Source of the DNA: Escherichia coli
GTDB lineage: Bacteria > Pseudomonadota > Gammaproteobacteria > Enterobacterales > Enterobacteriaceae
Assembly: GCF_003790525.1 (NCBI RefSeq)
Contig: NZ_CP033635.1
Direction: 5' to 3' (one strand)
DNA length: 64,000 nt
The notes under the pieces: generated by a model
What the model saw: the letters and a program-made list of their open reading frames with translations, nothing else
What the model was told of the DNA's origin: nothing
Databases searched by the model: none
Shown: positions 626-55,592 of the stretch, in pieces
Layout of the letters: each line of letters begins with the position of its first letter
Numbering within the stretch: position 1 is the stretch's first letter
Program-made: the position numbers and the translations under genes

Positions 626-702
626 GCTATTTTTGATAGTTCTTGCGGCTAATATGCTCTATATAGTGATGTTCCGATGACTTATGACTATATGGAGCAA
701 AT

Positions 703-1819: not shown

Positions 1820-1968
1820 ACCGTGATGTGAACGACTCTCTGACGCGTGAAAGAATCAGCGTCAGAGAAACGGAAAACGCGATCCAGATCACAAATGCAT
1901 TGTATTCACATCATTAACCGTTTTAAGATCATTTCATCACTTTTTCGCAACTCACCCGATAATCTGTT

Positions 1969-3159: not shown

Positions 3160-3183
3160 TTGAAAGGCCCATTCGGGCCTTTT

Positions 3184-3849: not shown

Positions 3850-3961
3850 TGGTGGTTGTTATCCTGTGTATCTGGTTTATCAGCGAAAAGTATAAGGGGT
3901 AAACAACGATAAAGTGTCACTCTTTAGCTAACCTTGCATCGCATTGACCAAAACTTGAACC

Positions 3962-4058
3962 GATTTAGCAAAACGTGGCATCGGTCAATTCATTCATTTG
4001 ACTTATACTTGCCTGGGCAATATTATCCCCTGCAACTAATTACTTGCCAGGGCAACTA
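3962..4058 (+). promoter_or_regulatory. marO operator/promoter: marbox-like element, -35 TTGACT (3998-4003), MarR palindromic sites I (about 4006-4023) and II (about 4041-4055)
   Basis: two near-identical palindromes TACTTGCC(T/A)GGGCAA directly upstream of marR; GATTTAGCAAAACGTGGCAT marbox-like sequence. Confidence 0.8.
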
Positions 4059-4060
4059 AT

Positions 4061-4495
4061 GTGAAAAGTACCAGCGATCTGTTCAATGAAATTATTCCAT
4101 TGGGTCGCTTAATCCATATGGTTAATCAGAAGAAAGATCGCCTGCTTAACGAGTATCTGTCTCCGCTGGATATTACCGCGGCACAGTTTAAGGTGCTCTG
4201 CTCTATCCGCTGCGCGGCGTGTATTACTCCGGTTGAACTGAAAAAGGTATTGTCGGTCGACCTGGGGGCGCTGACCCGTATGCTGGATCGCCTGGTCTGT
4301 AAAGGCTGGGTGGAAAGGTTGCCGAACCCGAATGACAAGCGCGGCGTACTGGTAAAACTTACCACCAGCGGCGCGGCAATATGTGAACAATGCCATCAAT
4401 TAGTTGGCCAGGACCTGCATCAAGAATTAACAAAAAACCTGACGGCGGACGAAGTGGCAACACTTGAGCATTTGCTTAAGAAAGTCCTGCCGTAA
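4061..4495 (+). CDS. marR: multiple antibiotic resistance repressor MarR (GTG start)
   Basis: 144 aa wHTH protein; recognised MarR sequence. Confidence 0.93.
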
Positions 4496-4515
4496 ACAAA
4501 AAAAGAGGTATGACG

Positions 4516-4899
4516 ATGTCCAGACGCAATACTGACGCTATTACCATTCATAGCATTTTGGACTGGATCGAGGACAACCTGGAATCGCCACTGTCACTGG
4601 AGAAAGTGTCAGAGCGTTCGGGTTACTCCAAATGGCACCTGCAACGGATGTTTAAAAAAGAAACCGGTCATTCATTAGGCCAATACATCCGCAGCCGTAA
4701 GATGACGGAAATCGCGCAAAAGCTGAAGGAAAGTAACGAGCCGATACTCTATCTGGCAGAACGATATGGCTTCGAGTCGCAACAAACTCTGACCCGAACC
4801 TTCAAAAATTACTTTGATGTTCCGCCACATAAATACCGGATGACCAATATGCAGGGCGAATCGCGCTTTTTACATCCATTAAATCATTACAACAGCTAG
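4516..4899 (+). CDS. marA: AraC/XylS-family activator MarA
   Basis: 127 aa from [24 protein letters not shown]; recognised MarA. Confidence 0.93.
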
Positions 4900-4930
4900 T
4901 TGATAACGTGACAACGTCACTGAGGCAATC

Positions 4931-5149
4931 ATGAAACCACTTTTATCCGCAATTGCAGCTGCGCTTATTCTCTTTTCCACGCAGGGCATTGCGGAACAAA
5001 CCACGCAGCCGGTTGTTACTTCCTGTGCCAATGTCGTGGTTGTTCCCCCATCGCAGGAACAACCACCGTTTGATTTAAATCACATGGGTACTGGCAGTGA
5101 TAAGTCGGATGCGCTCGGCGTGCCCTATTATAATCAACACGCTATGTAG
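4931..5149 (+). CDS. marB: MarB periplasmic protein
   Basis: 72 aa with signal peptide, directly after marA. Confidence 0.85.
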   Translation: MKPLLSAIAAALILFSTQGIAEQTTQPVVTSCANVVVVPPSQEQPPFDLNHMGTGSDKSDALGVPYYNQHAM

Positions 5150-5205
5150 TTATTGTCAGGCTCTGATCACAGAGCCTGACATCTCCGTAATATCTTTTTG
5201 AAGTC

Positions 5206-8346
<3,141 letters not shown>

Positions 8347-11382: not shown

Positions 11383-11426
11383 AAGCAGACGCACAGAGTG
11401 CTGGCATCACATTCTGTGCGTATGGT

Positions 11427-12326
11427 TTAGCCTCTAACCTTTACCGCTTTACGCCACCGCAAGCCAAATACATTGATATACAGCCCGGTCATAATGAGCA
11501 CCGCACCGAAAAATTGCAGGCCCGTTAAGCGTTCATCCAGCAATAGTGCCGCACTTGCCAGTCCAACTACAGGCACCAGTAACGATAACGGTGCAACCCG
11601 CCAGGTTTCATAGCGTCCCAGTAACGTCCCCCAGATCCCATAACCAACAATTGTCGCCACAAACGCCAGATACATCAGAGACAAGATGGTGGTCATATCG
11701 ATAGTAACCAGACTGTGAATCATGGTTGCGGAACCATCGAGAATCAGCGAGGCAACAAAGAAGGGAATGATTGGGATTAATGCGCTCCAGATTACCAGCG
11801 ACATCACCGCCGGACGCGTTGCGTGCGACATGATCTTTTTATTGAAGATGTTGCCACACGCCCAACTAAATGCTGCCGCCAGGGTCAACATAAAGCCGAG
11901 CATCGCCACATGCTGACCGTTCAGACTATCTTCGATTAACACCAGTACGCCAAAAATCGCTAAGGCGATCCCCGCCAATTGTTTGCCATGCAGTCGCTCC
12001 CCGAAAGTAAACGCGCCAAGCACGATAGTAAAAAACGCCTGTGCCTGTAACACCAGCGAAGCCAGTCCAGCAGGCATACCAAAGTTAATGGCGCAGAACA
12101 GAAAGGCAAACTGCGCAAAACTGATGGTTAATCCATACCCCAGCAGCAAATTCAGTGGTACTTTCGGTCGTGCGACAAAAAAGATAGCCGGAAAAGCAAC
12201 CAGCATAAAGCGCAAACCGGCCAACATCAGCGGTGGCATGTTATGAAGCCCCACTTTGATGACCACAAAATTTAGCCCCCATACGACCACTACCAGTAGC
12301 GCCAACACCCCATCTTTTCGCGACAT
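11427..12326 (-). CDS. eamA: cysteine/O-acetylserine exporter EamA (DMT family)
   Basis: 299 aa DMT transporter from MSRKDGVLALL; recognised EamA/YdeD. Confidence 0.85.
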   Translation of the reverse strand: MSRKDGVLALLVVVVWGLNFVVIKVGLHNMPPLMLAGLRFMLVAFPAIFFVARPKVPLNLLLGYGLTISFAQFAFLFCAINFGMPAGLASLVLQAQAFFTIVLGAFTFGERLHGKQLAGIALAIFGVLVLIEDSLNGQHVAMLGFMLTLAAAFSWACGNIFNKKIMSHATRPAVMSLVIWSALIPIIPFFVASLILDGSATMIHSLVTIDMTTILSLMYLAFVATIVGYGIWGTLLGRYETWRVAPLSLLVPVVGLASAALLLDERLTGLQFFGAVLIMTGLYINVFGLRWRKAVKVRG

Positions 12327-12520
12327 TCTACCGCCTCTGAATTTCATCTTTTGTAAGCAATCAACTTAGCTGAATTTACTTTTCTTTAACAGTTGATTCG
12401 TTAGTCGCCGATTACGACGGCATTAATGCGCAAATAAGTCGCTATACTTCGGATTTTTGCCATGCTATTCCTTTACATCTCTAAAACAAAACATAACGAA
12501 ACGCACTGCCGGACAGACAA

Positions 12521-13708
12521 ATGAACTTATCCCTACGACGCTCTACCAGCGCCCTTCTTGCCTCGTCGTTGTTATTAACCATCGGACGCGGCGCTACGCT
12601 GCCGTTTATGACCATTTACTTGAGTCGCCAGTACAGCCTGAGTGTCGATCTAATCGGTTATGCGATGACAATTGCGCTCACTATTGGCGTCGTTTTTAGC
12701 CTCGGTTTTGGTATCCTGGCGGATAAGTTCGACAAGAAACGCTATATGTTACTGGCAATTACCGCCTTCGCCAGCGGTTTTATTGCCATTCCTTTAGTGA
12801 ATAACGTGACGCTGGTGGTGCTCTTTTTTGCCCTTATTAACTGCGCCTATTCCGTTTTTGCTACCGTGTTGAAAGCCTGGTTTGCCGACAATCTTTCGTC
12901 CACCAGCAAAACGAAAATCTTCTCAATCAACTACACCATGCTCAACATTGGCTGGACCATCGGTCCGCCGCTCGGCACGTTGTTGGTGATGCAGAGCATC
13001 AATCTGCCCTTTTGGCTGGCAGCTATCTGTTCCGCGTTTCCCATGCTTTTCATTCAAATTTGGGTAAAGCGCAGCGAGAAAATCATCGCCACGGAAACAG
13101 GCAGAGCCTGGTCGCCGAAAGTTTTATTACAAGATAAAGCACTGTTGTGGTTTACCTGCTCTGGTTTTCTGGCTTCCTTTGTTAGCGGCGCATTTGCCTC
13201 GTGCATTTCACAATATGTGATGGTGATTGCTGATGGGGATTTTGCCGAAAAGGTGGTCGCGGTTGTTCTTCCGGTGAATGCTGCCATGGTAGTTACGTTG
13301 CAATATTCCGTGGGCCGCCGCCTTAACCCGGCTAACATCCGCGCGCTGATGACAGCAGGCACCCTCTGTTTCGTCATCGGGCTGGTCGGTTTTATTTTTT
13401 CCGGCAACAGCCTGCTAATGTGGGGTATGTCAGCTGCGGTATTTACTGTCGGTGAAATCATTTATGCGCCGGGCGAGTATATGTTGATTGACCATATTGC
13501 GCCGCCAGGAATGAAAGCCAGCTATTTTTCCGCCCAGTCTTTAGGCTGGCTTGGTGCTGCGATTAACCCATTAGTGAGTGGCATAGTACTTACCAGTCTG
13601 CCGCCTTTCTCGCTGTTTATCATCTTAGCGTTGGTGATCGTTGCTGCGTGGGTGCTGATGTTAAAAGGAATTCGTGCAAGACCGTGGGGGCAGCCCGCGC
13701 TTTGTTGA
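12521..13708 (+). CDS. ydeE: MFS transporter YdeE
   Basis: 395 aa 12-TM MFS protein at the expected position. Confidence 0.8.
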   Translation: MNLSLRRSTSALLASSLLLTIGRGATLPFMTIYLSRQYSLSVDLIGYAMTIALTIGVVFSLGFGILADKFDKKRYMLLAITAFASGFIAIPLVNNVTLVVLFFALINCAYSVFATVLKAWFADNLSSTSKTKIFSINYTMLNIGWTIGPPLGTLLVMQSINLPFWLAAICSAFPMLFIQIWVKRSEKIIATETGRAWSPKVLLQDKALLWFTCSGFLASFVSGAFASCISQYVMVIADGDFAEKVVAVVLPVNAAMVVTLQYSVGRRLNPANIRALMTAGTLCFVIGLVGFIFSGNSLLMWGMSAAVFTVGEIIYAPGEYMLIDHIAPPGMKASYFSAQSLGWLGAAINPLVSGIVLTSLPPFSLFIILALVIVAAWVLMLKGIRARPWGQPALC

Positions 13709-13834
13709 TTTAAGTCGAACACAATAAAAATTTAATTCAGCCTTCGTTTAGGTTACCTCTGCTAATATCTTTCTCATTGAGATGAAAATTAAGGTAAGCG
13801 AGGAAACACACCACACCATAAACGGAGGCAAATA

Positions 13835-13930
13835 ATGCTGGGTAATATGAATGTTTTTATGGCCGTACTGGGAATAATTTTATTTTCTGGTTTTCTGGCC
13901 GCGTATTTCAGCCACAAATGGGATGACTAA
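13835..13930 (+). CDS. mgtS: small membrane protein MgtS (YneM), 31 aa
   Basis: MLGNMNVFMAVLGIILFSGFLAAYFSHKWDD with RBS GGAGG; followed by a hairpin terminator. Confidence 0.8.
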   Translation: MLGNMNVFMAVLGIILFSGFLAAYFSHKWDD

Positions 13931-44365: not shown

Positions 44366-44391
44366 AATTAACTACACCATTAACTACACCG
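44366..44391 (+). repeat. left copy of 26-bp direct repeat AATTAACTACACCATTAACTACACCG (tandem 12-mer; candidate integrase arm-type sites)
   Basis: exact copy at 55567-55592; followed in both copies by a related ACAACGTG(G/A)AACAA motif. Confidence 0.6.
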
Positions 44392-45466
44392 TTCGGCGCA
44401 CTGTATGAAACAACGTGGAACAAATAGACACAAGCGGCAGGCTATACCGTTATCATTTTTCAGCTATCCGTCATGAAGCTGGTGGATGATCACGGATAAC
44501 CAGGCATCTACAGCGCCTTAAAAAGCTGAACCCGACAAACATTTCTGCTTATCGGGTCCGATCGCTCTTTCTACTCGTGGCAGATGAGTTTACTAGGAAG
44601 GGGGGAACATTGTATCAGGCTATCCCCTTTCTGTGCTGATTCGGCTGGTGAATGATCTACTTGGGGCACTACACTTTTCGGATAGTGCGGGTATCCGGTT
44701 TTCTGCCTCATCGAATTTTAAGCCTTCTGACGGCCTGTATATCATTTCCTGTGGAGTTGCCGCCCTGATAGCGAATACTGCGGCAGCATGTGATTTACCC
44801 CCCGTTCTGTTGATGTTTGATGTGGCTGGTTGATGTGCTGCCATGTTTTCCGCCAATGGTGGAAAAGCCCACCAGCGCAACGCAGGACGCATAAAACCAT
44901 TGCGATGACTCTGGACGCAAAACCACGTTTAACGATGTTTTGCACTGAACCAGAATACTGTTCGTTTTTGTCTCGATGTCCGTACGTATTACGTCCGCAC
45001 CTAATCCGGCATCATGCCCACCAGCGTAACGCATTTTTTTAATTTCGTGGCTGTGCGTCCACCAGCTACGCCGGAATGGGGTATTCCGTTTCAACGGAAC
45101 AGGTATGACGAACATAATCGCACCTTCTCCCGAAAACGGTGCGACCTGCATCATCGAAATGGTGATTCAGCTACTCGGCGATTTTCACCATTCAGAATCT
45201 GGCGGGTGAGTTATCCAGCTTCCACCAATGGGGGATTCTGGAACAATCAACGGGTTACGCCTTATCAGCAAAAAAGCACATCAACTGTAAAGGAAATCGT
45301 TATGGTTGCTGGTGGGCTGCGTCACCATCATGGTGATGATGCTGTCCAGTCAGCCGGAACGGTTGAACAGGGTGGCTATGGGTCACTCTGTTGTGCGTTA
45401 TTTGCGTGATCCTGGTACGGGGTGACTATCTTTCAGATAGTCGGTTGCCTGGTTACACGAAAAAAT

Positions 45467-45769
45467 TTACTTCCTGCGTTTATCCTGCTTTGTATGCCCG
45501 TGCTGAATGCCCCGCAGTGGATCTTCTTTTTTCAGGTCGATCCCCATGTCCGTTAGTGTTTTTGTGGCGGCGGTTCTTATGGCACAAATCAGGTCTCTTT
45601 CCGGTTCCCGGGTTATGGTTGCCTTCCGGATGCATGCCGTTCGTCGTTCCGTTACATACTGACGCGCTTCATCACTTGCCGCCTGTTTCAGTAACTCACC
45701 CCAGCGATTAGCCGCCCGTCGCCATAAACCTTTCGCTTCCAGTTCTTCCGCTTTGTCATCATGCACCAT
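45467..45769 (-). CDS. ANR-like small regulator, paralog 2 (start at MVHDD.. assumed)
   Basis: MVHDDKAEELEAKGLWRRAANRWGELL... parallels the protein at 49352-49624. Confidence 0.55.
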   Translation of the reverse strand: MVHDDKAEELEAKGLWRRAANRWGELLKQAASDEARQYVTERRTACIRKATITREPERDLICAIRTAATKTLTDMGIDLKKEDPLRGIQHGHTKQDKRRK

Positions 45770-45883
45770 AAGCATAATCCCATTGATACCTGTTAACTCT
45801 GAATGGTTGGTTTCTGTTCTTTTGATAATTTCCCGCATAGCTTATTGTATGACAGTACTGTCCCACAATAAGGAGTTGCACGC

Positions 45884-46174
45884 ATGAGAATGACTAGGCA
45901 CAAAAAACAGATTCTTGAACTCTACAAACCTGAGTATCGCGATTGGGTGCGGGTGGAGGCCGGAGATCCGCCTTTTGATGTTCGTGGTGTGACAGTGCTG
46001 CTCTATGGTTCCGAATATCGGCGATATCACATAGAGGCAACACGAAGGACGCTAAACGCTATGGTTCGTGATAAGTTGCTGGAGCGTGTGAAAGTCCGTG
46101 AGCCACGTTTTGATGTGCGTATTGGTGGCGATGGTGCGCATTGCACGGTAATCCGCTATGGCCTGGTAAGGTAA
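45884..46174 (+). CDS. hypothetical protein (96 aa), divergent from the ANR-like gene
   Basis: ORF with upstream AGGAG-like RBS; no recognisable family. Confidence 0.4.
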   Translation: MRMTRHKKQILELYKPEYRDWVRVEAGDPPFDVRGVTVLLYGSEYRRYHIEATRRTLNAMVRDKLLERVKVREPRFDVRIGGDGAHCTVIRYGLVR

Positions 46175-46276
46175 GCCATCGGGTAAATCAGATGATTAAA
46201 TCACCAGAATGTAAATTTACATTCTGCCAGCCACCAGCTACCCTCCTCAAAATTGAGGACCCTTTTTATCAACTGG

Positions 46277-46558
46277 TTACCGCCGCAACCGTTCCGGCTT
46301 CTTCCACTGATAAGTGTTTTTCGCGCTCTCCTGATACATCGCCACGCGTCGACGGTATGCCAGCAACTCTAGTACTCTGATTCGTATGTCGCGCATATCC
46401 ACGCCGTTAAGCTCAATACCATCACGGCGCATTACATCAGCAACAACACGCACATAATTTTCGGCGGTCACGCTGTCCGGCTGCGTGGCCTGTTCGTCAT
46501 GCTGCTGGCTGATTCCGGTAACGCGGCGGATTAATCCCAGTAGTTCGACTTCTGTCAT
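46277..46558 (-). CDS. hypothetical protein (93 aa) adjacent to cos copy A; start taken at internal Met
   Basis: MTEVELLGLIRRVTGI...; the longer ORF 46277..46756 would read through the cos site and is judged an artefact. Confidence 0.4.
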   Translation of the reverse strand: MTEVELLGLIRRVTGISQQHDEQATQPDSVTAENYVRVVADVMRRDGIELNGVDMRDIRIRVLELLAYRRRVAMYQESAKNTYQWKKPERLRR

Positions 46559-46570
46559 TGTGCCCCCATC

Positions 46571-46648
46571 GCTCTGATAGTCTGGTGTCGTCGGGTCCTT
46601 TCCGGCATGTGGACCCGTTACGGGGCGTCGACCTCGCGCGTTTTCACT
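46571..46648 (+). other. lambda-like cos site copy A (cosQ-cosN-left-arm homology); cosN-like 12-mer GGGCGTCGACCT at 46602-46613
   Basis: GGGTCCTTTCCGG...GTTACG GGGCGTCGACCT CGCGCGTTTTCACTATTTATGAAAATTTTTCGG closely matches the recalled lambda cos junction (lambda cosN GGGCGGCGACCT). Confidence 0.75.
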
Positions 46649-46664
46649 ATTTATGAAAATTTTT

Positions 46665-46775
46665 CGGGATCCATGTCCGGTTTCTCTGCAAGTTAACCAT
46701 ATGAAAAATATAAAAACATGCTTTCCATGAACCGGACATGCGCAAAAAACAGACACTAAAACCGGACATCGAACC
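46665..46775. repeat. three CCGGACAT motifs in alternating orientation next to cos copy A (candidate cosB-like terminase-docking sites)
   Basis: ATGTCCGG near 46671, CCGGACATG near 46729, CCGGACATC near 46763. Confidence 0.45.
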
Positions 46776-46837
46776 AGTTAACCGAAAGTGTGCACAAATC
46801 ACATTCATTGCTGCGAGTGATTAACAAGTTATCGGCT

Positions 46838-47272
46838 TTACTGTTCTGTATCGGCTGATTGCTCCATGCTGGCACGGCGAACGCTTACGGCATGACGCCA
46901 CCCAGCCAGAAAGCCAGCCATTTTATTTCGTGCCTTGCTCACATCTTCCGGTGAATAGCCGTAAATATGCAAACCTTCATCAAATCGATGTTCTGTTTCT
47001 TCACTGGAGTACTCGTCACGCTCAGATGAAAGCAGCCTCGCAAACATAATTTTTTCCAGCGCACTGGTTTCTACGTGATATCCGATGGTCTGAAGATGGC
47101 TTTTACCTGAATACCAAAGCAATGTATGCCCGATGTGATAACCGCCAGACTTTCCGCGATCCGCATTAAGATACGGCATCCCCTGTTTGGTCCATGCGCG
47201 AATAGTGGTTCTGTTAACCTTGAAATGTTCAGCTATTTCCTGCTGACTTACAAAACAAGCTTTATCAATCAT
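46838..47272 (-). CDS. Nu1-like small terminase-type DNA-binding protein (wHTH N-terminus, divergent C-terminus); possibly a packaging-redirection factor
   Basis: VSQQEIAEHFKVNRTTIRAWTKQGMPYL aligns with lambda Nu1 VNKKQLADIFGASIRTIQNWQEQGMPVL; 144 aa versus 181 aa for Nu1. Confidence 0.65.
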   Translation of the reverse strand: MIDKACFVSQQEIAEHFKVNRTTIRAWTKQGMPYLNADRGKSGGYHIGHTLLWYSGKSHLQTIGYHVETSALEKIMFARLLSSERDEYSSEETEHRFDEGLHIYGYSPEDVSKARNKMAGFLAGWRHAVSVRRASMEQSADTEQ

Positions 47273-47334
47273 AATGTTACCTTAACTGCATGGTTAAATA
47301 TCAATCAAGTGGTGGTGGTGTCACCTTCACGGAA

Positions 47335-47405
47335 AAACGTCATAAATAGCGAAAACGTGCGAGGTCGACGCCCCGTAACGGGTCCACATGCCGGAAAGGA
47401 CCCGC
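47335..47405 (-). other. lambda-like cos site copy B, inverted relative to copy A; cosN-like 12-mer (reverse complement) at 47362-47373
   Basis: reverse complement reads GGGTCCTTTCCGGCATGTGGACCCGTTACG GGGCGTCGACCT CGCACGTTTTCGCTATTTATGA; lies about 70 bp upstream of the terS-like start in the lambda cosN-to-Nu1 orientation. Confidence 0.7.
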
Positions 47406-47428
47406 AAAAAAAGCCGGATTTCTCCGGC
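47406..47428 (-). terminator. intrinsic terminator after the capsid/decoration genes
   Basis: minus strand GCCGGAGAAATCCGGC followed by U7. Confidence 0.65.
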
Positions 47429-47502
47429 CTTGTCTCAGATGGTTTTCAGTATGCGATAGATGTCGCCGTCATCGCCCTGGTTTGTGCCATCGTTCCCCCT
47501 GC

Positions 47503-47838
47503 TTATCGGGCCAGCGGCTGAACGGATACGCCGGAACCCGCAAAGGCGGCGCATTTTTTCGCATCGGTGTCGACGCTCTCAGGCCAGTTAACGGCGGCAA
47601 TATTGAATATCCCCGTCTTGTAACACTGTGCTGATTTCTGCTTTGACGTGTCCACAGGGTACGAGGTCAGATAAACAGCCTTGCCAGATTCCTTACCATC
47701 CCACGCCTTAAACTCGCCATTGTCTGCCAGCATCAGCGGGGTAAATTCCTGAATAACGCCAGCATCAGCGGCAAAATGTACCAGCGTCGTGGATACCTGT
47801 TGGCTGCCTGAAAATAACTCAATGTATGGAGCGTCCAT
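47503..47838 (-). CDS. lambda gpD-like head decoration protein
   Basis: TPLMLADNGEFKAWDG and AFAGSGVSV match lambda gpD TPLMLDTSSRKLVAWDG and AFAGTAISIV; 111 aa. Confidence 0.8.
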   Translation of the reverse strand: MDAPYIELFSGSQQVSTTLVHFAADAGVIQEFTPLMLADNGEFKAWDGKESGKAVYLTSYPVDTSKQKSAQCYKTGIFNIAAVNWPESVDTDAKKCAAFAGSGVSVQPLAR

Positions 47839-47849
47839 AGAATCCCCCG

Positions 47850-48905
47850 TTAAGCAATTTTGACGGTAACAAATTTGCGAATATCTGCCGGTACAGGCTG
47901 CGGTGCGCTGTGCGTCTGCACGTACTCAATCGCCGGATCGCCGTCCTCAATCCAGTTTTTCGGGTAGTACATGTTTTGCGTTGCGCCCGTTCTTACCGCT
48001 TCCTGATCCATAATCGCACCATATGCCACCAGCCCTTTATTGTTGGTGTTACCCAGGACCAGCAAATCAGGCTCAAGGAAATATTTTTCGGTCCCGTCGC
48101 TGTCAGTGTATTTGCCGGAATAGACGATAAGGGCCAGATCACCAAGATAGCCTTTAAAGCTCACCACTTCGCCCAGGTTTTTACAGGCCAGCTCGGCGGC
48201 GGATTCTGATCCACGGGAAAGATCGTACAGTTCACGGAATTTTTTAAAGCTGCGTAATGTGCGCCATACCTCACCGCCCATAATCATGACGTTGGCGGGG
48301 CAACCTGCCTGATCAGCATAAAGCTCGATGTCATAGATTGGGTCGTGCATGTCTTTATCCTGCTGGGACCATTTTTTACCACTGGCCTGCTGTATGATGC
48401 AGTTTTCCGGTATTTTCCAGTCGATTTCATAGCGTTCTATGCCTTCGCCCTCAATGATGTTTTTTCCGGTCGTTACCGCATTCACCGCCAGCCATTCCAC
48501 GCGCGCCTTAATGGCGTTTATCTGGCGGCGCATGTTGCCAGTAATCAGGCGCATACGGCGGTAAGTTGGATCGTTAAGCTGTGCCGGATCTTCTCCATCC
48601 ATGCGCATGATGGTCTTTGTTGGATCGATTTCGTGCTTTGGCTTCATGTAGCCTGGTTTAATCGTGCTGGTTTCGTACCCTTTATCGCGCTGGACCTGAC
48701 TACCCACCATAGGAGAACAGAACGCTGACATCGTAACCTCTTCAATGTCCAGGGTGTCCAGCATGATGTTTTGGGTGTTGAAGGTCGCCACGTTCGGGAA
48801 AAACAGCGTGGTAAACAGCGGACTAAATTTATATTCCGAAATATCCCCGCGATTCAGGTACGCGAAAAGCTGGTTAGTTGTAAGTGCCTTTGCTTTGCCT
48901 GTCAT
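47850..48905 (-). CDS. lambda gpE-like major capsid protein
   Basis: 351 aa; KPGYMKPKHEIDPTKT, DPTYRRMRLITGNMRR and YPKNWIEDGDPA...SAP...FVTVKIA align with lambda gpE along the whole length. Confidence 0.85.
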   Translation of the reverse strand: MTGKAKALTTNQLFAYLNRGDISEYKFSPLFTTLFFPNVATFNTQNIMLDTLDIEEVTMSAFCSPMVGSQVQRDKGYETSTIKPGYMKPKHEIDPTKTIMRMDGEDPAQLNDPTYRRMRLITGNMRRQINAIKARVEWLAVNAVTTGKNIIEGEGIERYEIDWKIPENCIIQQASGKKWSQQDKDMHDPIYDIELYADQAGCPANVMIMGGEVWRTLRSFKKFRELYDLSRGSESAAELACKNLGEVVSFKGYLGDLALIVYSGKYTDSDGTEKYFLEPDLLVLGNTNNKGLVAYGAIMDQEAVRTGATQNMYYPKNWIEDGDPAIEYVQTHSAPQPVPADIRKFVTVKIA

Positions 48906-49111
48906 TATTCACCTCCGTGAACCTGATTGATACCCAGCGCCGCACGCAAATAGGTGCGCACCTGCCAGCCTGTTGACGGCTCAACCATCGCCAGCGGATC
49001 AAGTCCTGCCGCAATGCCTGCTTTTACATTCTGCTGGTGGCGTTCCTTGAGCGCCTCCACGATGTCGGGGCTTATGTAGACCGTCACCCCGCCTTTTTTC
49101 TCTTCTGCCAT
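48905..49111 (-). CDS. hypothetical 68-aa protein translationally coupled (TAATG) to the capsid gene
   Basis: stop overlaps the gpE-like ATG; first gene of the capsid operon. Confidence 0.5.
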   Translation of the reverse strand: MAEEKKGGVTVYISPDIVEALKERHQQNVKAGIAAGLDPLAMVEPSTGWQVRTYLRAALGINQVHGGE

Positions 49112-49145
49112 AGTCAGAAATTCCTCTTTGACTTAAAAAATCATA

Positions 49146-49163
49146 ACTGGATGTTCATCCAGT
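49146..49163. promoter_or_regulatory. perfect palindrome ACTGGATG-TT-CATCCAGT upstream of the capsid operon (candidate operator/activator site)
   Basis: 8-bp arms with 2-bp spacer, about 35 bp upstream of the first operon ATG (49111). Confidence 0.4.
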
Positions 49164-49322
49164 CCTGATTATAATCATGATTGCATTTTGCGCAACAATA
49201 TTGAGTTACGTTGCAAATTATGAAATGATTATCCCGATCATGTGTGTCAGTTCACCATAAAAAACCTCGTATACAAAAGCCCCATAAGCCCCCTGTGACC
49301 TTATCGGGCTTTTTTTAGGCGT

Positions 49323-49344
49323 AAAAAAGCCGGATTGCTCCGGC
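49323..49344 (-). terminator. intrinsic terminator after the ANR-like gene (same stem family as 47406-47428)
   Basis: minus strand GCCGGAGCAATCCGGC followed by U6. Confidence 0.6.
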
Positions 49345-49351
49345 TGTGTGC

Positions 49352-49624
49352 TCACTTCTGCGGGTAGTTGCGCCATATTGCTTTGCCAATACCAGCTATC
49401 CCCATTTGTTTTTCAGTGCGATTAACTGACCTTTTCAGAGCGCCTAAATCATCCGGCGGCTCCGGTGGCCTCTGTGCCTTACGGATACATTCCGCGCGAC
49501 GCATTGCCACCTGTTCGCGCTCCTTGTCTGTCTCCACCAGCCTCATAACTTCACCCCATCGCGCCGCCGCCCTCCGGTAAAAGCCTTTTGCCTCGAGTTC
49601 CTCCGCTATGCGGTCATGTACCAT
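49352..49624 (-). CDS. ANR-like small regulator, paralog 1 (start at MVHDR.. assumed)
   Basis: MVHDRIAEELEAKGFYRRAAARWGEVM...; longer ORF start would overlap ssb. Confidence 0.55.
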   Translation of the reverse strand: MVHDRIAEELEAKGFYRRAAARWGEVMRLVETDKEREQVAMRRAECIRKAQRPPEPPDDLGALKRSVNRTEKQMGIAGIGKAIWRNYPQK

Positions 49625-49634
49625 CGTCACCCCC

Positions 49635-50045
49635 TCAGAACGGAATATCATCACCGTAAGGGTCATCGCCTCCCGCTGGTGGCTGATTACCCTGTGTGCC
49701 TGTGGTTTTGCGTCTGTTCCCGCCAGGACGTGCCGCACGGGCACTGATTACGCTGTCTGCAATAACCTGCCAGCCCTGCCGCGTTTCCCCGTTCTGTCCG
49801 GTCCACTGGCTGACCTGCATCGTGCCGGATACGCTGGCAACGTCGCCTTTTTGATGTTTAGCCAGAAAGTCGGCCTGTTTGCCAAATGCGATGACCGATA
49901 ACCATAACGTCGCCTGTCCGTCCTGTGCCTGGCCGCATGGTAAAGATACCGCCATACGCGCCAGCGTCATCGGTGTACCCTTACTGGTCTGTTTTACCTG
50001 CGGGTCGTCCACCAGCCGCCCGTAAGCTGCTATCTGTGCTGTCAT
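49635..50045 (-). CDS. single-stranded DNA-binding protein (SSB-like OB fold with acidic DDIPF tail)
   Basis: 136 aa; C-terminal ...DPYGDDIPF typical of SSB; Gly/Pro-rich linker. Confidence 0.75.
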   Translation of the reverse strand: MTAQIAAYGRLVDDPQVKQTSKGTPMTLARMAVSLPCGQAQDGQATLWLSVIAFGKQADFLAKHQKGDVASVSGTMQVSQWTGQNGETRQGWQVIADSVISARAARPGGNRRKTTGTQGNQPPAGGDDPYGDDIPF

Positions 50046-50284
50046 GCTGTCTGCTCTCCGGTTTTAACGTTGATGGTTGTTACCTGTTCTGCTTCGGCAA
50101 TATCCCGCTCTGTCAGCGTGGCAAAGTTTGCCGCCGTCGTTGTCATGAATGCGCTTATCAGTTCGGGATGTGCTTTCGCGTATCCTTCCCCTGTGTTGCG
50201 GTCGATGATTTTTATCGCCACCCTCAGCCAGTGCTCTGTAAGGTCAATGGCGCGGTGATCTGTCTTTTTGTGGCTTACCTTCAT
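50042..50284 (-). CDS. hypothetical protein (80 aa)
   Basis: ORF overlapping the ssb start (coupled); no recognisable family. Confidence 0.45.
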   Translation of the reverse strand: MKVSHKKTDHRAIDLTEHWLRVAIKIIDRNTGEGYAKAHPELISAFMTTTAANFATLTERDIAEAEQVTTINVKTGEQTA

Positions 50285-50287
50285 GAT

Positions 50288-50611
50288 TTACTCCAGAGTA
50301 CCGCTATTGCTGCTGTCGTTAACCGGATACCAGGCAAATACCATCGATTCACCACAGTGAACAAACTTCTTATCCGGCAGATAAAGGCACTCGCACATTC
50401 CCTCATCAGGACTATGCGGACTCATGCCCAGCTCACTGGTCAGCACGGGTAAGATTTCGCGGCAGGTGTTCCCCGCACCGAAATAATCAACCTCACAAAG
50501 CGCCCATGCAGCAATCGGGCTGTACCATTCCGTGCCGTCGTCGTCTTTGAACTTAGCCCACCAGCCAGGAAGGGCAGTTGATATGCTCAGTGTTTCAATT
50601 TCAGTGTTCAT
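50288..50611 (-). CDS. hypothetical protein (about 107 aa; start uncertain)
   Basis: ORF 50288..50656 with internal Met; Cys-rich, no recognisable family. Confidence 0.45.
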   Translation of the reverse strand: MNTEIETLSISTALPGWWAKFKDDDGTEWYSPIAAWALCEVDYFGAGNTCREILPVLTSELGMSPHSPDEGMCECLYLPDKKFVHCGESMVFAWYPVNDSSNSGTLE

Positions 50612-50659
50612 AAATTTACCTTCGGTATTTTGTCCTGCTGTTCGATTTTTATTCATTGC

Positions 50660-50870
50660 TCACCATCTCTCACTTTTACTACTCACTTTTTAAAGCGTCT
50701 CGCTTCGTCTCACTTGAGATTTTTGTGTTTTGTATGTGCATGTTTCATAAGTGTTTTTTCACTGCTCACTTTTGAGCATGTATACAGGTGAGAAAGTGAG
50801 TAATTGTGTTAATATTTTGTAAAAACCTCACCATTACTCACTTTTACTACTCACTTTTTACAGTGGTCCT
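50660..50870. repeat. iteron array (CTCACTT heptamers, two 24-bp direct repeats) - candidate replication origin of the element
   Basis: at least 6 direct and 2 inverted CTCACTT copies between 50669 and 50856; CTCACTTTTACTACTCACTTTTTA at 50669 and 50839; directly 3' of the primase-helicase gene. Confidence 0.6.
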
Positions 50871-52264
50871 ACATCATCACCATCAATGTAAATCACGGCG
50901 TCTTTTTCCAGTTTGGCTAACCATCGCCGCATATTTTTCACGTCATACCCAAGCCGTTTCATGTCATCACGTAACAGCGGGATCGTGCACTTGTCGCCGT
51001 TCTGTGTGCGTGAACGGATGCACCCCCATAGCGCGGTATGGTTTTCCGTCTTGTTGCCTGCCTCCTCGATGCGCTCCAGTTCAGCAGGGGCGCGGGGAAC
51101 GTCAATCACCACCATGGACACAATTTCTTCGCCATCTGTATCGGTGAACACCTCCACGCTTTTAAGGTCGTATGCACTCTCTTTTGGCTCCTCTGCGTCC
51201 TTCATCTTCGTACACGCCGCAACCAGTGCTGTAACGTCTGAATTTTCCCTGCTGATTCGGTACTCTGCATCAAGCGCGGCACGGAATGCACTGGAACCAC
51301 GCGCCCCCTTTGTTTCATCCTTGCCGGAATGGTGAACCACCAGCACCGTGGCCCCTGTGGCCTGCTTTATCGCGTCACACCCCTGGATAAATGCGCCCAT
51401 ATCACGGGAATCATTTTCATCATTCCCACCAAAGCAACGGGCCAGCGTGTCGATCACAATCAGCCGCACATTTTCGCCCGTTCTGCTCTTAACAAGTCCG
51501 GCAGTCCTGATAACCTGCTCCACATAGTCAGGCGATGCAGGGAAAACAGGCGCGTTAATGATGCACAAATCTGTAACCACCTTGTCGTGGGTTATCTCCC
51601 ACGCCTTAACGCGGCGTTTTACGCCCATGCTGCCTTCACCAGCGATATAGATAACCGCACCCTTACTTACCCTGCGGCCTCCCCATGCCATACCTGTGGC
51701 AACATGGCACGACCAGGAAATGGCGAGGAACGATTTATAAGAACCGCTGGCCCCGTAGGTGCTGCATAATGACTCAGCCGGAATAAGCCCCTTAATGACG
51801 TAGCTTTGCTGCGCATCGAATCCCTCAGAACCCCATGAGATGGGAAGTGTGATTTTTCGCTTTCCGCCATTCATGACCAGGCTTTCCCCTCTCTCCCATG
51901 TTTCCCGTAGTCGTGGTAGCTGGTCGCTCCAGTCCTCCAGCAGTTCGAAATTTTCAGAAAGTAGCCGCGCCTCCTGGACTCCGGCGATCGCCAGTTTTGT
52001 GGCAATGGTCAGCATCTGCATATCGTCCAGGTTTCCGGCGCGTATGACCTTTACCCTGTATCGTCCTTCATCAACAATCTGTAAGTTGTCCAGTTCGCTT
52101 AACTGATAACGGCCCAGATAAACCGGAGGGATGGGATCGCCTGCTTTTTTGGCCTGTGCAATCATGTAATGTTCTGCAAAGGAGTGAGCATTATCACCCG
52201 CAAAAATAACCGCCTCAGTGTGTTTATCTTTCGGTAACAGTTTTACGTTCGGTGCAAGTTTCAT
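50858..52264 (-). CDS. replication initiator: primase-associated N-domain + RecA-like/AAA helicase (pri-rep type)
   Basis: 468 aa; Walker A GASGSYKS, Walker B LIVIDTL, VLVVHHSGKD; C-terminal wH-like tail. Confidence 0.8.
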   Translation of the reverse strand: MKLAPNVKLLPKDKHTEAVIFAGDNAHSFAEHYMIAQAKKAGDPIPPVYLGRYQLSELDNLQIVDEGRYRVKVIRAGNLDDMQMLTIATKLAIAGVQEARLLSENFELLEDWSDQLPRLRETWERGESLVMNGGKRKITLPISWGSEGFDAQQSYVIKGLIPAESLCSTYGASGSYKSFLAISWSCHVATGMAWGGRRVSKGAVIYIAGEGSMGVKRRVKAWEITHDKVVTDLCIINAPVFPASPDYVEQVIRTAGLVKSRTGENVRLIVIDTLARCFGGNDENDSRDMGAFIQGCDAIKQATGATVLVVHHSGKDETKGARGSSAFRAALDAEYRISRENSDVTALVAACTKMKDAEEPKESAYDLKSVEVFTDTDGEEIVSMVVIDVPRAPAELERIEEAGNKTENHTALWGCIRSRTQNGDKCTIPLLRDDMKRLGYDVKNMRRWLAKLEKDAVIYIDGDDVGPL

Positions 52265-52548
52265 TTCTTACCCCCTGCGACCAGCATTTCACGGATTTTG
52301 CGGATATAACTTGCAGCACGTTTCTGATTAACGGCTTTACGATGGCCCACCAGCGTGAAATCACGCCGGAACTGATAAACAGGCATAACGCAGTCATATT
52401 CGTAGCCTTCACGGCGGTAAGTGATGCGACGTTCCTCCACGCCCTTAATCATTACCGTGCCGCCGTAGTTATCACGGAAAATATCGCCGGGACGGATTTC
52501 AGGACGAGCGGGGCCGCTGGCATTAACGCCAGAATTTTTATTTTTCAT
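52261..52548 (-). CDS. hypothetical protein (95 aa) translationally coupled to the replication gene
   Basis: stop overlaps the downstream start; basic protein. Confidence 0.45.
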   Translation of the reverse strand: MKNKNSGVNASGPARPEIRPGDIFRDNYGGTVMIKGVEERRITYRREGYEYDCVMPVYQFRRDFTLVGHRKAVNQKRAASYIRKIREMLVAGGKK

Positions 52549-52553
52549 GTTTT

Positions 52554-52781
52554 TTATTCTCCGGTGTGCTGTTCTTTATATCTGTCGTGAATTGCCATCA
52601 CTGTATTTAATTCATTAATAACAGCCGTTAATAGCGTACGCACGGCAGAAAACATCATTGAATCAGATTCATCGCCACTTTCCTGCACATCAATTAAATT
52701 AAGTAGTAATGCGTCCATTTCCTTTGCGCGGATTAATGCCTTTTCACAATGAAAAATAACACCAAAGGGTATTTTATTCAT
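52554..52781 (-). CDS. hypothetical protein (about 75 aa)
   Basis: ORF with internal Met start; first gene after the divergent operator region. Confidence 0.4.
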   Translation of the reverse strand: MNKIPFGVIFHCEKALIRAKEMDALLLNLIDVQESGDESDSMMFSAVRTLLTAVINELNTVMAIHDRYKEQHTGE

Positions 52782-53056
52782 GACTCCCCTCCTGACGGAT
52801 ACGGGCGGCGAATACAGCGACACAACCGGACGGGCAACGGTTACGCGCTTCGCGTTCCGTCCAGGCGGTCACGTGGATAATTTGAGATTCTCCGGCACTC
52901 AGTGCCAGAAAACGCCACACAAAGGCGGTTTGTGTGTGCGCTAGTCGTGGGGTATGCTGTGTTCCAGCCATAATCGTTACTCCTGTTAACGGTTTGGTTA
53001 GACGCCCTGCATGTGTTACAGCACTGCGGGGCGTTGTCTTTTTAACGGCTTTCGTG

Positions 53057-53104
53057 ATAGGGTGTACACCTATCAAGCAAAAACATAACGCTATAGGTGT
53101 ACAC
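53057..53104. promoter_or_regulatory. two TAGG(G)TGTACAC palindromic operator-like sites immediately upstream of the RHH gene
   Basis: ATAGGGTGTACACCTAT at 53057-53073 and ATAGGTGTACAC at 53093-53104, ending at the ATG. Confidence 0.6.
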
Positions 53105-53299
53105 ATGTCAACAGTTATTAAGCGAGATAAAAAACCAAAGGGAACAGGAAAAGCCCCCCCATTCCATATGCGAATAGCTCCAGAACTGAAAGAGCAGTTT
53201 GATAATGAGGCCAGCAATGATGGGGTAAGCCTAGCCAACTGGCTTAAAGAGTTGGGGCGCGCCGAACTAAAGCGACGCGGCATTGAACCTAAAGGCTGA
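53105..53299 (+). CDS. ribbon-helix-helix (CopG/Arc-like) DNA-binding protein, 64 aa
   Basis: beta-strand/helix pattern PFHMRIAPELKEQF...SLANWLKELGRAEL typical of RHH regulators/antitoxins. Confidence 0.6.
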   Translation: MSTVIKRDKKPKGTGKAPPFHMRIAPELKEQFDNEASNDGVSLANWLKELGRAELKRRGIEPKG

Positions 53300-53302
53300 T
53301 GT

Positions 53303-53428
53303 ATGACTGAAAAGCAGACCGATAACAAACTTTCTCTACCAGAGAATAAACCAGCAGGCTTCTTACCAAGAAAAATCCTTGATGAGATCAAACGCCGCCA
53401 GCGCCGCAAGGCCAAAGAGCAGGAATAG
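53303..53428 (+). CDS. small basic ORF (41 aa) immediately downstream of the RHH gene
   Basis: ATG 4 nt after the RHH stop; product MTEKQTDNKLSLPENKPAGFLPRKILDEIKRRQRRKAKEQE. Confidence 0.3.
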   Translation: MTEKQTDNKLSLPENKPAGFLPRKILDEIKRRQRRKAKEQE

Positions 53429-53752
53429 CCCACCAGCAAGCCAGCACACTGATCACATTGGCCACCGTGACAGGTGGCCTTTTCTTTGCCCGTTATCCGG
53501 CAATTGTGGCGCTTCGCCACACGGTTGATATAATTCCCCTGCTCAGATTCATTTTTTGCGCGGCAGGTAAATTGTTCAGAAAGGCGGCTCCTTATCGGGG
53601 CCGCTTTTTTTATGTCTGAAAAACCGCGATTTTGTTGTTTTTCAGTTTCACCAGGCCGAACGAAGCCCCGCCCATGTTCGGGCGTATATCCAGTCTTCAT
53701 GGTTAAATCTCTGTATTAGTGGATGGGTGGCGGCTGTGTGCCGCCAGTCTTT

Positions 53753-53941
53753 TTAGTGAACTGCCTCGCAGCTTTCCTTCCATGCCAGAACTTCGGATAA
53801 AGACCAGCCAACGGAACGACCGCCCAGCTTACGCCGTGATGGGAATTGTCCGGCCTTTTCCAGGCGGTAGCGGCATGAGCGGCTAAGGCCTGTTAGCTTT
53901 TCGCATTCTTTTTCACGTATAAAGCGATCAGTGCTTAACAC
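53753..53941 (-). CDS. alpA: AlpA/Vis-family phage regulatory protein (excisionase-like)
   Basis: 62 aa; ...IREKECEKLTGLSRSCRYRLEKAGQFPSRRKLGGRSVGW... typical AlpA fold signature. Confidence 0.8.
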   Translation of the reverse strand: MLSTDRFIREKECEKLTGLSRSCRYRLEKAGQFPSRRKLGGRSVGWSLSEVLAWKESCEAVH

Positions 53942-54315
53942 TATTGCCCCCTTTCGTTTCTTAAAGAGTTATTTCGTGTTCTATTGCGTTGGGATGTGTC
54001 TGATTGTGTCAGGGTGATTCAGAGTTGGCAAATGTTGGTGGCGGGTATTTTACAGAAACGGGGTGATTTTAATAAAAATCATTTTAATTCAGTATTATGC
54101 AAAGGCATAAAATCTCGTTTTATGCCTTTTTTCTCACTATTTAAAGCGTTATTCGCTAATGTATAAAAAACCAGTTGAGCATTAAAAATCAGCAACTTAT
54201 AAATCTGTATACTTTTTGACCTCTTGTTCGTGGTTGTTTCACGTTGTTGTGTATTGTTGCACGTTGTATCTGTGCACTTATCCAGTATGCGCATACTGAA
54301 AAAACACGAAAAAAA

Positions 54316-55566
54316 TTATTTTCTTCTGGCTACTGGTAGCGTGGTTACGTTTTCATGTGCTCCCGCCAGTATCTCCAACCGCTCCACCCACATATCCAGC
54401 GCATTGCGTTTCGCATCCAGATAACGGGAATGATTATAAACTCGCTGCATTCCTGGCATCTGGTGGCCTGTAAGCTGCTCCACGACGTGAGGATCCACGC
54501 CTAAATCGTTCAGCATCGTTGTAAAGGTGCGCCGGATGTCATGCAGTGACCATTGAGGGTGTTTTAGCCTCCTGTGCGCTAATCTGCCGTACTGCGATAC
54601 GCTGGCCTCCTGTTTCACTTCCCCCAGTAATAAGCCCGTGTGCCTGTTCTGCTCCACCAGCCGCGTGACGAACGGCAGGATCGCTTCCGGTATGGGCCGG
54701 AATATTGCGACCTTCGTTTTGCTGTGCTCCTTCGGAACGGTCCAGAGCATTTCCGTGAAATCCCACTCCCCGATCTCCGATAACCTCAGTTCTACCGTCC
54801 TGGCTCCGAAGACAATCAGGAGGCGGATTAGTGCGACGTAGTAAGGGGAAAATATTTTTTTGTCCAGTGCCTGCAATAATTCGCCCAGTTCTTTGGTGCT
54901 TAAGACACGTTCGCTTATATCCGGTTTTTTCCCAACGTCCGCCACGTTCAGATCGTCCAGAACGTTGCTGATTGCATAGCGCCGCCTCCGGCAAAACTTA
55001 AGCGCCTGTTTGCACGCCTGTAGCACGAATCCGGCAGTAACAGGCGTTCGCTTTGCCACCCGATCAAAACAGGCCAGCCAGTGCCGTAGCTCGCATTTAT
55101 CCAGCGGCATAGCACCAATGTGCTGTATTACGTGATTATTAAGTCGCCTTTTCAGGGCGATATAATCCACGCGGTTTTCCTTTACGTAAGACTCAAGCCA
55201 GTAGGTGAGCGCATCTCCAACCGTTACAGGCTTTAACGCTTCCTGCATGGTGTAATTCATCTCATGACGTGGATTTTTCCCCTCAGCCAGCCATGCGCGA
55301 CACTGGGCGGCTTTTTCCCTGGCTGATTTCAGGCTCAGATCAGGATAATTTCCCAGCTTAATACGTTCCGGTCGTGTCTCTCTTCCCGTTCCGGCCCTGT
55401 AAGTGAAATACCAGGTTAAAAGGCCGCTGGTTGAATGCCTGACGCTCAGATTTCCACCGTCATTAAGAAAGGCTGTTTTTTGGGCGGGTGTGCCGTTGAT
55501 TTTCCTTAGCTGTGTATCGCTCAGCTTGTTAAGTGCTCTGGTCATAATTTTGAATCCGGTCATCAC
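54316..55566 (-). CDS. int: tyrosine site-specific integrase (P4-type)
   Basis: 416 aa; C-terminal catalytic region with ...HDIRRTF... and ...LTGHQMPGMQRVYNH... (R..H..R..Y). Confidence 0.88.
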   Translation of the reverse strand: MMTGFKIMTRALNKLSDTQLRKINGTPAQKTAFLNDGGNLSVRHSTSGLLTWYFTYRAGTGRETRPERIKLGNYPDLSLKSAREKAAQCRAWLAEGKNPRHEMNYTMQEALKPVTVGDALTYWLESYVKENRVDYIALKRRLNNHVIQHIGAMPLDKCELRHWLACFDRVAKRTPVTAGFVLQACKQALKFCRRRRYAISNVLDDLNVADVGKKPDISERVLSTKELGELLQALDKKIFSPYYVALIRLLIVFGARTVELRLSEIGEWDFTEMLWTVPKEHSKTKVAIFRPIPEAILPFVTRLVEQNRHTGLLLGEVKQEASVSQYGRLAHRRLKHPQWSLHDIRRTFTTMLNDLGVDPHVVEQLTGHQMPGMQRVYNHSRYLDAKRNALDMWVERLEILAGAHENVTTLPVARRK

Positions 55567-55592
55567 AATTAACTACACCATTAACTACACCG
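55567..55592 (+). repeat. right copy of the 26-bp direct repeat AATTAACTACACCATTAACTACACCG
   Basis: exact copy of 44366-44391, directly upstream of the int start codon. Confidence 0.6.

Follow-up and report, generated by a model that had tools for sequence, protein, structure and literature searches.

Two inverted lambda-like cos sites around rppA in a phage satellite of the EcCICFT073 family in Escherichia coli

The window considered here, i.e., the whole stretch of 64,000 nucleotides analysed on one strand of an Escherichia coli contig (NZ_CP033635.1, assembly GCF_003790525.1), carries two lambda-like cos sites in inverted orientation on either side of a single gene, rppA. This arrangement corresponds to the already known cos1-rppA-cos2 module of EcCICFT073, a phage-inducible chromosomal island (PICI), here in an additional member of the same family. 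It is probably to be viewed as the packaging module of the satellite, where cos2 would offer a second helper route independent of the redirecting-phage-packaging (Rpp) protein and where the arms formed by the two sites would recombine with each other. Considering the two cos sites by themselves, the novelty implied by an earlier note made on this DNA from the sequence does not stand, since both have been published as cos1 and cos2 of EcCICFT073, and their presence in the window is a re-discovery that only adds a member to the family. What appears new lies elsewhere, namely (i) cos2 would be, judging from its sequence, a phage-type cos with a cosB shared with phages of the PhiR12 type, (ii) the convergent two-cos layout is conserved, including in islands with another cosN class, in islands lacking rpp and in islands encoding a small terminase subunit (TerS), and (iii) the segment between the cos sites is found in both orientations in natural strains.

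The cos1-rppA-cos2 module in the window

A repeat search of the region returned one inverted repeat, with arms of 78 nt at 46592-46669 (+) and 47327-47404 (-), 91% complementary and separated by 657 nt; each arm contains cosQ, cosN and about 30 bp from the beginning of the lambda left arm. This is the same object as delineated in the earlier note, although the edges differ slightly from those proposed there (46571-46648 and 47335-47405, about 55 bp, with a spacer of about 690 bp). The lambda reference used for comparison was the real cos junction built from the ends of NC_001416, with which the lambda cos sequence given in that note agrees. Copy A matches the junction in 67 of 78 columns and copy B in 67 of 81, and in both copies the match spans cosQ (CGGGTCCTTTCCGG) and cosN up to about bp 45 of the lambda left arm. 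In both copies, cosQ stands at lambda's spacing, within the range of about 17-30 bp upstream of cosN, and the cosN 12-mer GGGCGTCGACCT is framed by the conserved flanks GTTACG and CGC; its one mismatch to lambda is a single G-to-T change (G6T) creating GTCGAC, a SalI site. As such, the repeat search and the lambda alignment together bear out the claim of two inverted lambda-like cos sites bracketing a gene. The core 21-mer GTTACGGGGCGTCGACCTCGC occurs exactly twice in the window, at 46617-46637 (+) and 47359-47379 (-), where no match would be expected by chance even with 3 mismatches allowed (100 shuffles), which leaves no room for chance similarity. The same holds for a duplication introduced at assembly, another concern of the earlier note: a native-order query from the region 46200-47500 was covered at 80% or more in 64 complete E. 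coli genomes, the arrangement recurs in the 25 distinct loci described below and is present in dozens of independently assembled complete genomes, and the CFT073 sites have both been cloned and deleted experimentally (PMC6092414).

For the 1.3-kb region around the two copies, identity reaches 99.9% with three complete E. coli genomes and about 94% with positions 1387438-1388664 of E. coli CFT073, inside EcCICFT073. The sole open reading frame (ORF) between the copies encodes 144 aa on the minus strand, its ATG lying 89 nt downstream of the cosN end and 54 nt downstream of the repeat arm end of copy B; it is preceded by the lambda gpE- and gpD-like genes and followed by a small ORF. While this gene had been labelled Nu1-like or terS-like, it does not encode a small terminase but RppA, a mimic of the TerS DNA-binding domain. 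The ORF is 96% identical to CFT073 c1503/RppA, with which it shares the length of 144 aa and residues R21-T22, and it matches the RppC structures 6HLK and 6HN7 (E = 4e-32). As found for Rpp proteins, it is shorter than TerS and lacks the C-terminus binding the large terminase subunit (TerL), ending about 35 residues early in an alignment with lambda Nu1 and two phage TerS.

The cos1, cos2 and rppA of EcCICFT073 were described and tested in 2018-2019 (Fillol-Salom et al., ISME J PMC6092414; Mol Cell PMC6739421). In these studies, c1503 (RppA) is a lambda inhibitor of 144 residues with R21-T22 in the recognition helix, and both RppA and RppC bind the helper TerS and block helper packaging. RppA hijacks the helper TerS in a heterocomplex specific to the cosB of cos1 and indifferent to that of the phage, through which the helper large terminase is recruited to cos1; the island is then packaged through cos1 and the phage blocked. 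Each cloned cos site renders a plasmid transferable by lambda and phi80. In the island, cos1, where cosQ and cosN resemble those of the helper and an island-specific cosB immediately precedes rppA, is the Rpp-dependent site, the deletion of which lowers transfer, while without cos2 transfer increases significantly with lambda and slightly with phi80; transfer persists with either site alone and is lost only when both are deleted (PMC6092414). In other words, cos2 functions on a plasmid and accounts for residual transfer without cos1, but is dispensable with lambda and phi80. Among the possibilities raised in the earlier note, these data support packaging from both sites as well as one main and one secondary site, the latter from the dependence of cos1 on RppA and the gain upon loss of cos2. 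Helper-phage induction, replication and transfer are published for EcCICFT073 only.

By match to the sequences given in Fig. S1A of the 2019 paper (PMC6739421), copy B corresponds to cos1 and copy A to cos2. In the window, the only R element of cos1 is an R3 specific to the island, ACCACCACC at bp 55-63, R2 and R1 being absent; an R3-PICI element was proposed at bp 48-65 for the cos1-type site only (Murialdo and Feiss 2022, PMC9026076), and the published functional cosB1 region, as delimited by chimera primers, reaches about 47194 in window numbering, i.e., inside rppA. A close likeness is the cosB of phage N15 with its single R3, on which the cos-PICI model is based (PMC9026076), as cos1 likewise has one R3-like element without R2 or R1. 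The difference is that cos1 is read by an Rpp-TerS heterocomplex and not by TerS alone, and that the model was applied to cos1 only.

cos2 as a phage-type cos

A lambda-like cosB is defined by the layout R3-I1-R2-R1. With positions counted from the first cosN base, the elements of lambda itself lie at 53-59 (R3, forward), 114-120 (R2, reverse) and 155-161 (R1, forward). In lambda's register, cos2 presents an R3-like CATGTCCGG at 50-58 (forward; 46672-46680 in the window), then an A/T-rich spacer and an R2-like CCGGACATG at 110-118 (reverse; 46732-46740), with a third element, CCGGACAT, at 46762-46769. Over 125 bp, the cosB of cos2 (46645-46769) shares 98.4% identity with the sequence immediately preceding Nu1 (terS) in five lambdoid PhiR12 phages, in an alignment that includes cosQ through cosN and ends just before the phage terS. 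These phages exhibit R3 and R2 at the same positions as cos2, and the full R3-R2-R1 set is found in the homologous phage only, where R1 is CATGACCGG at 145-153 (forward). A search with the consensus pattern of integration host factor (IHF) gave no match in either cos or in lambda itself, and is hence uninformative on I1. Compared with the cos of lambda-like phages, cos2 thus shares cosQ, cosN, the I2 region and R elements in register with R2 reversed, but its R elements read CATGTCCGG (type a; GGTTGTTGT in type b, see below) and not CGTTTCC (lambda) or CATGTCGG (phages 21 and 4), there is no terS after cos2, and the forward R1 is missing from the island copy. An assignment of the cos2 repeats to the CATGTCGG type of phages 21 and 4 was considered and rejected on account of an extra C and of the match to PhiR12-type phages instead.

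In the 2019 paper, no phage cosB was identifiable in the island and the reason for two cos sites was left open (PMC6739421). No statement that the cosB of cos2 is a phage cosB was found in the EcCICFT073 papers, in a coverage of the literature that is incomplete, and PMC9026076 makes no mention of cos2; with the same incomplete coverage, nothing relevant was found on PhiR12 or on inverted or invertible cos sites. Neither cos orientation nor inversion is mentioned in PMC6092414, PMC6739421 or PMC9026076.

Related loci were collected from IMG/VR, where a search with RppA returned 26 loci and two exact-pattern scans more than 100 further ones, sorted by cos sites and neighbouring genes and counted as distinct loci after removal of duplicate contigs. 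The cos pattern was widened to CACTATTTATGA variants, and the second cos of Nissle-type islands, which falls outside this pattern, was spotted by eye. The complete-genome searches covered 5,426 E. coli genomes, and a search of genome contigs with RppA gave no confirmed locus. As regards the number of cos copies in related elements, a check suggested in the earlier note, 25 distinct rpp-bearing loci possess two, namely the window, CFT073 and 23 IMG/VR contigs, and in all 25 rpp is preceded by a cosB1 oriented as the gene itself and followed by a cosB2 pointing the other way. Two alleles of cos2 can be discriminated: rpp and cosB1 are accompanied by cosB2a in 13 loci (window and CFT073 included) and by cosB2b in 12, the latter with R elements GGTTGTTGT at 50-58 (forward), ACAACAACC at 109-117 (reverse) and GGTTGTTGT again at 187-195 (forward). 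Both alleles occur in phages: in IMG/VR, the cosB2a 26-mer is found upstream of PhiR12-type terS-terL in 43 phage loci, and the cosB2b 20-mer upstream of a second terS type in 40; cosB2b had no match in the phage collection, its phage context coming only from IMG/VR. The two TerS types are near-identical over the C-terminal ~110 residues, while their N-terminal winged-helix DNA-binding domains are unrelated. The phages with cosB2a and cosB2b therefore differ in the TerS N-terminal domain only, the same type of pairing as between lambda and 21. In the complete genomes, the type-a cosB-terS module reached at least 80% query coverage in 1,141 of 5,426 and the type-b module in 244; the former figure is driven mainly by terS, because the 113-nt cosB2a core alone is present in only 225 genomes, about 79 of them islands (megablast).

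The convergent layout extends beyond these loci. In RppB-type islands (L025-L027), both sites belong to a different cosN class, also found in phages joining cosB2b with a more divergent TerL. This second class reads ACACCGGGGG, about 10 variable bases, then CGCGCAAAAACGCGC, the central bases varying among loci, and besides L025-L027 it is seen in phages L103, L106, L112 and L139, the TerL of which is only ~82% identical to that of PhiR12. A further 11 islands have lost rpp but retain a convergent pair of cos sites, with cosB2a in one and cosB2b in the other. Islands of the Nissle 1917 type combine a cos and a full-length island TerS homologue with a convergent cos containing 21-like CATGTCGG elements; in Nissle 1917 itself (L152, NZ_CP058217.1 1696070-1699499), the homologue has 180 aa, takes the place of rppA with its own cos upstream and is 49% identical to type-b phage TerS. 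The second cosB of this type is present at 80% coverage or more in 109 complete genomes, and the second cos shares with prophages only the R3 region (44 bp, 95.5%). A single locus, L028 (IMGVR_UViG_2840363982_000001, 59.8 kb, locus 600-6200), has an rpp-like gene with one cos only, its product 68% identical and its site of cos1 type, followed by a truncated lambda-like gpE; it resembles the helper-embedded PICIs of PMC10111431, with the capsid gene of a lambdoid prophage as the apparent insertion site. Cos-type satellites of Gram-positive bacteria, i.e., the Staphylococcus aureus pathogenicity islands (SaPIs) SaPIbov5 and SaPIbov4, resemble these islands in being packaged through the helper's cos sequence but lack Rpp; SaPIbov4 is cited as having two putative cos sites (PMC6092414).

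From this, cos2 would be a faithful copy of the cos of another lambdoid class, the TerS of which would read cos2 directly without Rpp, thereby opening a second packaging route and a second helper class to the island. With lambda and phi80, where no cosB2a match exists, cos2 would act only as a competing cut site, which fits the published gain of transfer upon cos2 deletion and would explain why cos2 looked useless or harmful with these helpers. The phage identity of cos2 further allows a prediction of the phages by which the island should be packaged through cos2 independently of Rpp, making the published question of why there are two cos sites directly testable. As regards orientation, lambda-type packaging is polar, the terminase staying on the cosB-side end and translocating away from cosN, and its termination needs cosQ and cosN at the downstream site. 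Because of this polarity, and because cosQ is needed ahead of cosN, a head-to-head arrangement would follow: an inverted site met from the wrong side would not cause an early stop and either start would give full island units, while directly oriented sites would excise or lose the rppA segment.

It is unlikely that cos2 is instead a scar devoid of selected function, i.e., phage DNA left behind by recombination between island and helper at the shared cosQ and cosN. Recombinants at cos are indeed seen (L055 and L078, below) and cos2 is dispensable, even costly, with lambda and phi80 (PMC6092414), but a scar would hardly keep the same position and orientation in 25/25 distinct rpp-bearing two-cos loci, come as two alleles each with R elements in register, or have switched cosN class together with cos1 in RppB-type islands; moreover, a second phage-type cos is kept even in islands without rpp, and cos2 alone supports residual transfer (PMC6092414). 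More improbable still is a decoy or brake titrating the helper terminase or cutting concatemers without serving island transfer. The gain of lambda-mediated transfer upon cos2 deletion would suit it (PMC6092414), and a helper-type cosB on a replicating island could be expected to compete with the phage cos. Interference was nonetheless mapped to rppA alone, its deletion restoring lambda plaques, and islands lacking rpp rely wholly on such sites; besides, a terminase-binding site beside a working cosN would also start packaging and be hard to tell from a second route.

Some points weigh against cos2 as a second helper route. The direct reading of cos2 by TerS of the cosB2a or cosB2b type is a prediction from sequence similarity, and the indifference of a translocating terminase to an inverted cos a prediction from packaging polarity. 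The match of the island cosB2a to the phage stops at bp 147, cutting off the forward R1. With the helpers tested, cos2 is a cost, as seen from the increased lambda-mediated transfer after its deletion (PMC6092414), and Rpp might sequester type-a TerS too, leaving cos2 unused. A prophage of the matching type would not usually share a genome with the island: among IMG/VR contigs compared by eye, no genome identifier is common to island contigs and contigs of phages of the matching type, and in most genomes with the island the cosB2a core occurs once. Two copies are present in PKF11 (NZ_CP156706.1) and PKF4 (NZ_CP156662.1), which carry the window island at 99.9% identity together with a second cosB2a core elsewhere that could be a matching prophage or a second island.

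Inversion and exchange between the two sites

The flipped isomer of window 46200-47500 was built in silico and searched in the complete genomes, where it was matched as one continuous piece in 15 E. coli genomes; these are mutually identical and may stem from one event. The island of WP4-S17-ESBL-08 adjoins phoQ, like that of CFT073, and encodes the identical RppA, but has rppA on the strand opposite to all its neighbours. In a comparison with HM670, where the order is normal, the flanks align on the same strand with 99.7-99.9% identity, while the 813-bp inner segment is 100% identical but reversed. At least 10 genomes carry this WP4/HM670 island variant in normal order. Islands lacking rpp behave alike, the 442-nt inner segment of their module (98.4-100% identical) lying one way in 4 genomes and the other way in 6, as scored relative to the capsid and c1504 flanks. 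The existence of these natural isomers supports an inversion by recombination between the cos copies, one of the alternatives entertained in the earlier note. Both isomers keep two intact cos sites. On a smaller scale, cosQ patches have been swapped between copies in both directions, as cos2 of the window has a cos1-type patch and the reverse exchange is present in L009-L011, L013 and L022. A crossover within the 25-bp cosN core, first drawn from the comparison with CFT073, was superseded by that with the nearer parent HM670; the crossover cannot be placed more finely because both arms are identical over 46 bp in HM670.

Recombination within the shared 46-78 bp of the arms would yield both the gene conversion of cosQ and cosN patches and the inversion of the segment. 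Alternatively, cutting at both cosN would release a 751-bp fragment with the same 12-nt overhangs at its two ends, as the two cosN are identical here, which could re-anneal and be religated either way. The data fit homologous recombination and cut-and-religate alike and cannot distinguish between them. The conserved head-to-head layout and the flipped isomers point to cos sites as recombination hotspots, where recombination would reshuffle packaging specificity between satellites and phages, with implications for the widening of helper range in virulence-carrying islands as well as for delivery particles designed from PICIs or cosmids.

Two loci exhibit junctions between island and phage sequences at cos. 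In L055 (IMGVR_UViG_2718217885_000003, about 1250-1850), the first nine codons of a PhiR12-type Nu1 are fused to the 3' part of rppA (~residues 77-144), with a full phage cosB2a upstream of the chimeric ORF and a convergent cosB2b site downstream. In L078 (IMGVR_UViG_3300008491_000088, 1265-4614), a capsid region 98.7% identical to that of the window, carrying the same G6T cosN, continues across cos into cosB2a and a complete terS-terL pair of phage origin (93% identity to PhiR12); the contig, which comes from a metagenome, may represent a true recombinant between island and phage at cos or a chimera produced during assembly.

The inverted repeats and the segment seen both ways, with identical inner sequence, recall the programmed invertible switches of the Hin, Gin, Cin and Fim systems, and the flipped isomer has rppA transcribed in the direction opposite to its neighbours. 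A switch for rppA/c1504 expression or for packaging direction is nevertheless very hard to credit. Unlike in those systems, no dedicated invertase lies next to the segment, the only recombinase in the PKF11 and WP4 annotations being the island integrase ~7 kb away, the repeats are terminase substrates and there is no evident on/off promoter logic: the number of promoter-like matches in the segment (4, with 2.0 +/- 1.8 expected) is no higher than chance would give and, with both cos sites intact in each isomer, no obvious on/off state arises. The 15 identical flipped genomes of EcCICFT073 type, perhaps from one event, argue in the same direction.

Beyond the second helper route, and more tentatively, the convergent pair could be conceived as a two-key cassette packaged by two helper classes, its flipping perhaps proceeding via terminase cuts. 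Position 1 would be a cos read through an island DNA-binding protein, i.e., Rpp or, in Nissle-type islands, a full TerS, and position 2 an interchangeable copy of the helper's own cos, where at least three cosB classes are seen; islands lacking rpp would then live on two phage-type keys.

The island and its other features

The two copies of a 26-nt direct repeat, AATTAACTACACCATTAACTACACCG, that delimit the satellite as a whole (Table 1) are found at 44366 and 55567, and in the annotation of the 99.9% identical PKF11 locus tqsA is split on both island sides. Genes annotated in PKF11 comprise int, alpA, an Icd-like gene, a RepA-family helicase, ssb, perC and the capsid and decoration homologues, and no terminase gene is present in this annotation. 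With a size in the range of ~10-15 kb, int at one end, alpA, a replication module, attachment (att) repeats and neither terminase nor tail genes, the island presents the features of a cos-type PICI.

Table 1. Features of the satellite island and of its packaging module, in window coordinates.
Feature	Position	Strand	Remarks
Whole satellite, EcCICFT073-family PICI in tqsA	44366..55592	-	11.2 kb
c1504-like small ORF	46277..46558	-	directly outside cos2; hypothetical protein in CFT073, PKF11, WP4, HM670
cos2 (copy A)	46592..46769	+	cosQ-like 46592-46605, cosN 46623-46634, phage-type cosB
Inter-arm segment (cosB2, rppA, cosB1)	46670..47326		found in either orientation in related islands
rppA, redirecting-phage-packaging protein, winged-helix, TerS mimic	46838..47272	-	144 aa
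cos1 (copy B)	47311..47404	-	cosQ-like 47391-47404, cosN 47362-47373, R3 element 47311-47319
Terminator-like hairpin	47406..47431	-	GGCCGGAGAAAUCCGGC then U7; just upstream of cos1; fold -19.1 kcal/mol, z = -3.2
Lambda gpD-like head decoration homologue (c1500 equivalent)	47503..47838	-	ORF and annotation
Lambda gpE-like major capsid homologue (c1499 equivalent)	47850..48905	-	ORF and annotation; 95% identical to CFT073 gene
Integrase, tyrosine recombinase	54316..55566	-	far end of island; site-specific integrase in PKF11

Compared with EcCICFT073, the window island presents ~94% DNA identity, 96% RppA identity, the same cosB1 and cosB2a sequences and the same gene order, i.e., capsid homologue, decoration homologue, cos1, rppA, cos2 and c1504. 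It differs by its location in tqsA and not beside phoQ, the absence of an extra ORF between the decoration gene and cos1, the G6T change in both cosN and the cos1-type cosQ patch in cos2. The G6T cosN is also present in both sites of L024 as well as in L075 and L078, all near relatives of the window island as judged from the identity of their capsid genes (98.5-99%); the two cosN of L012, like those of L015, differ within the locus (GGGCGGCGACCT vs GGGCGACGACCT). The hairpin preceding cos1, conserved at this place in all related loci, was not reported by a terminator scan.

In the island, the gpE-like gene comes before the gpD-like gene, the reverse of the lambda order, and deleting c1499 and c1500 in CFT073 gave no relief of lambda interference (PMC6092414). 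A satellite-like capsid gene, 55% identical to that of the window, is found in L114 (IMGVR_UViG_3300028982_000003; 800-3300 and 11400-13900), where its neighbours are a Nu1-like gene of full length and a cos whose cosB falls in none of the classes, with a type-b phage terS-terL pair about 8 kb away. Finally, two genes for PerC-family regulators are present in the window island, at 45467-45838 (-) and 49352-49744 (-), one of them in an accessory region beyond cos2, absent from CFT073, where it adjoins a 96-aa ORF (45884-46174).

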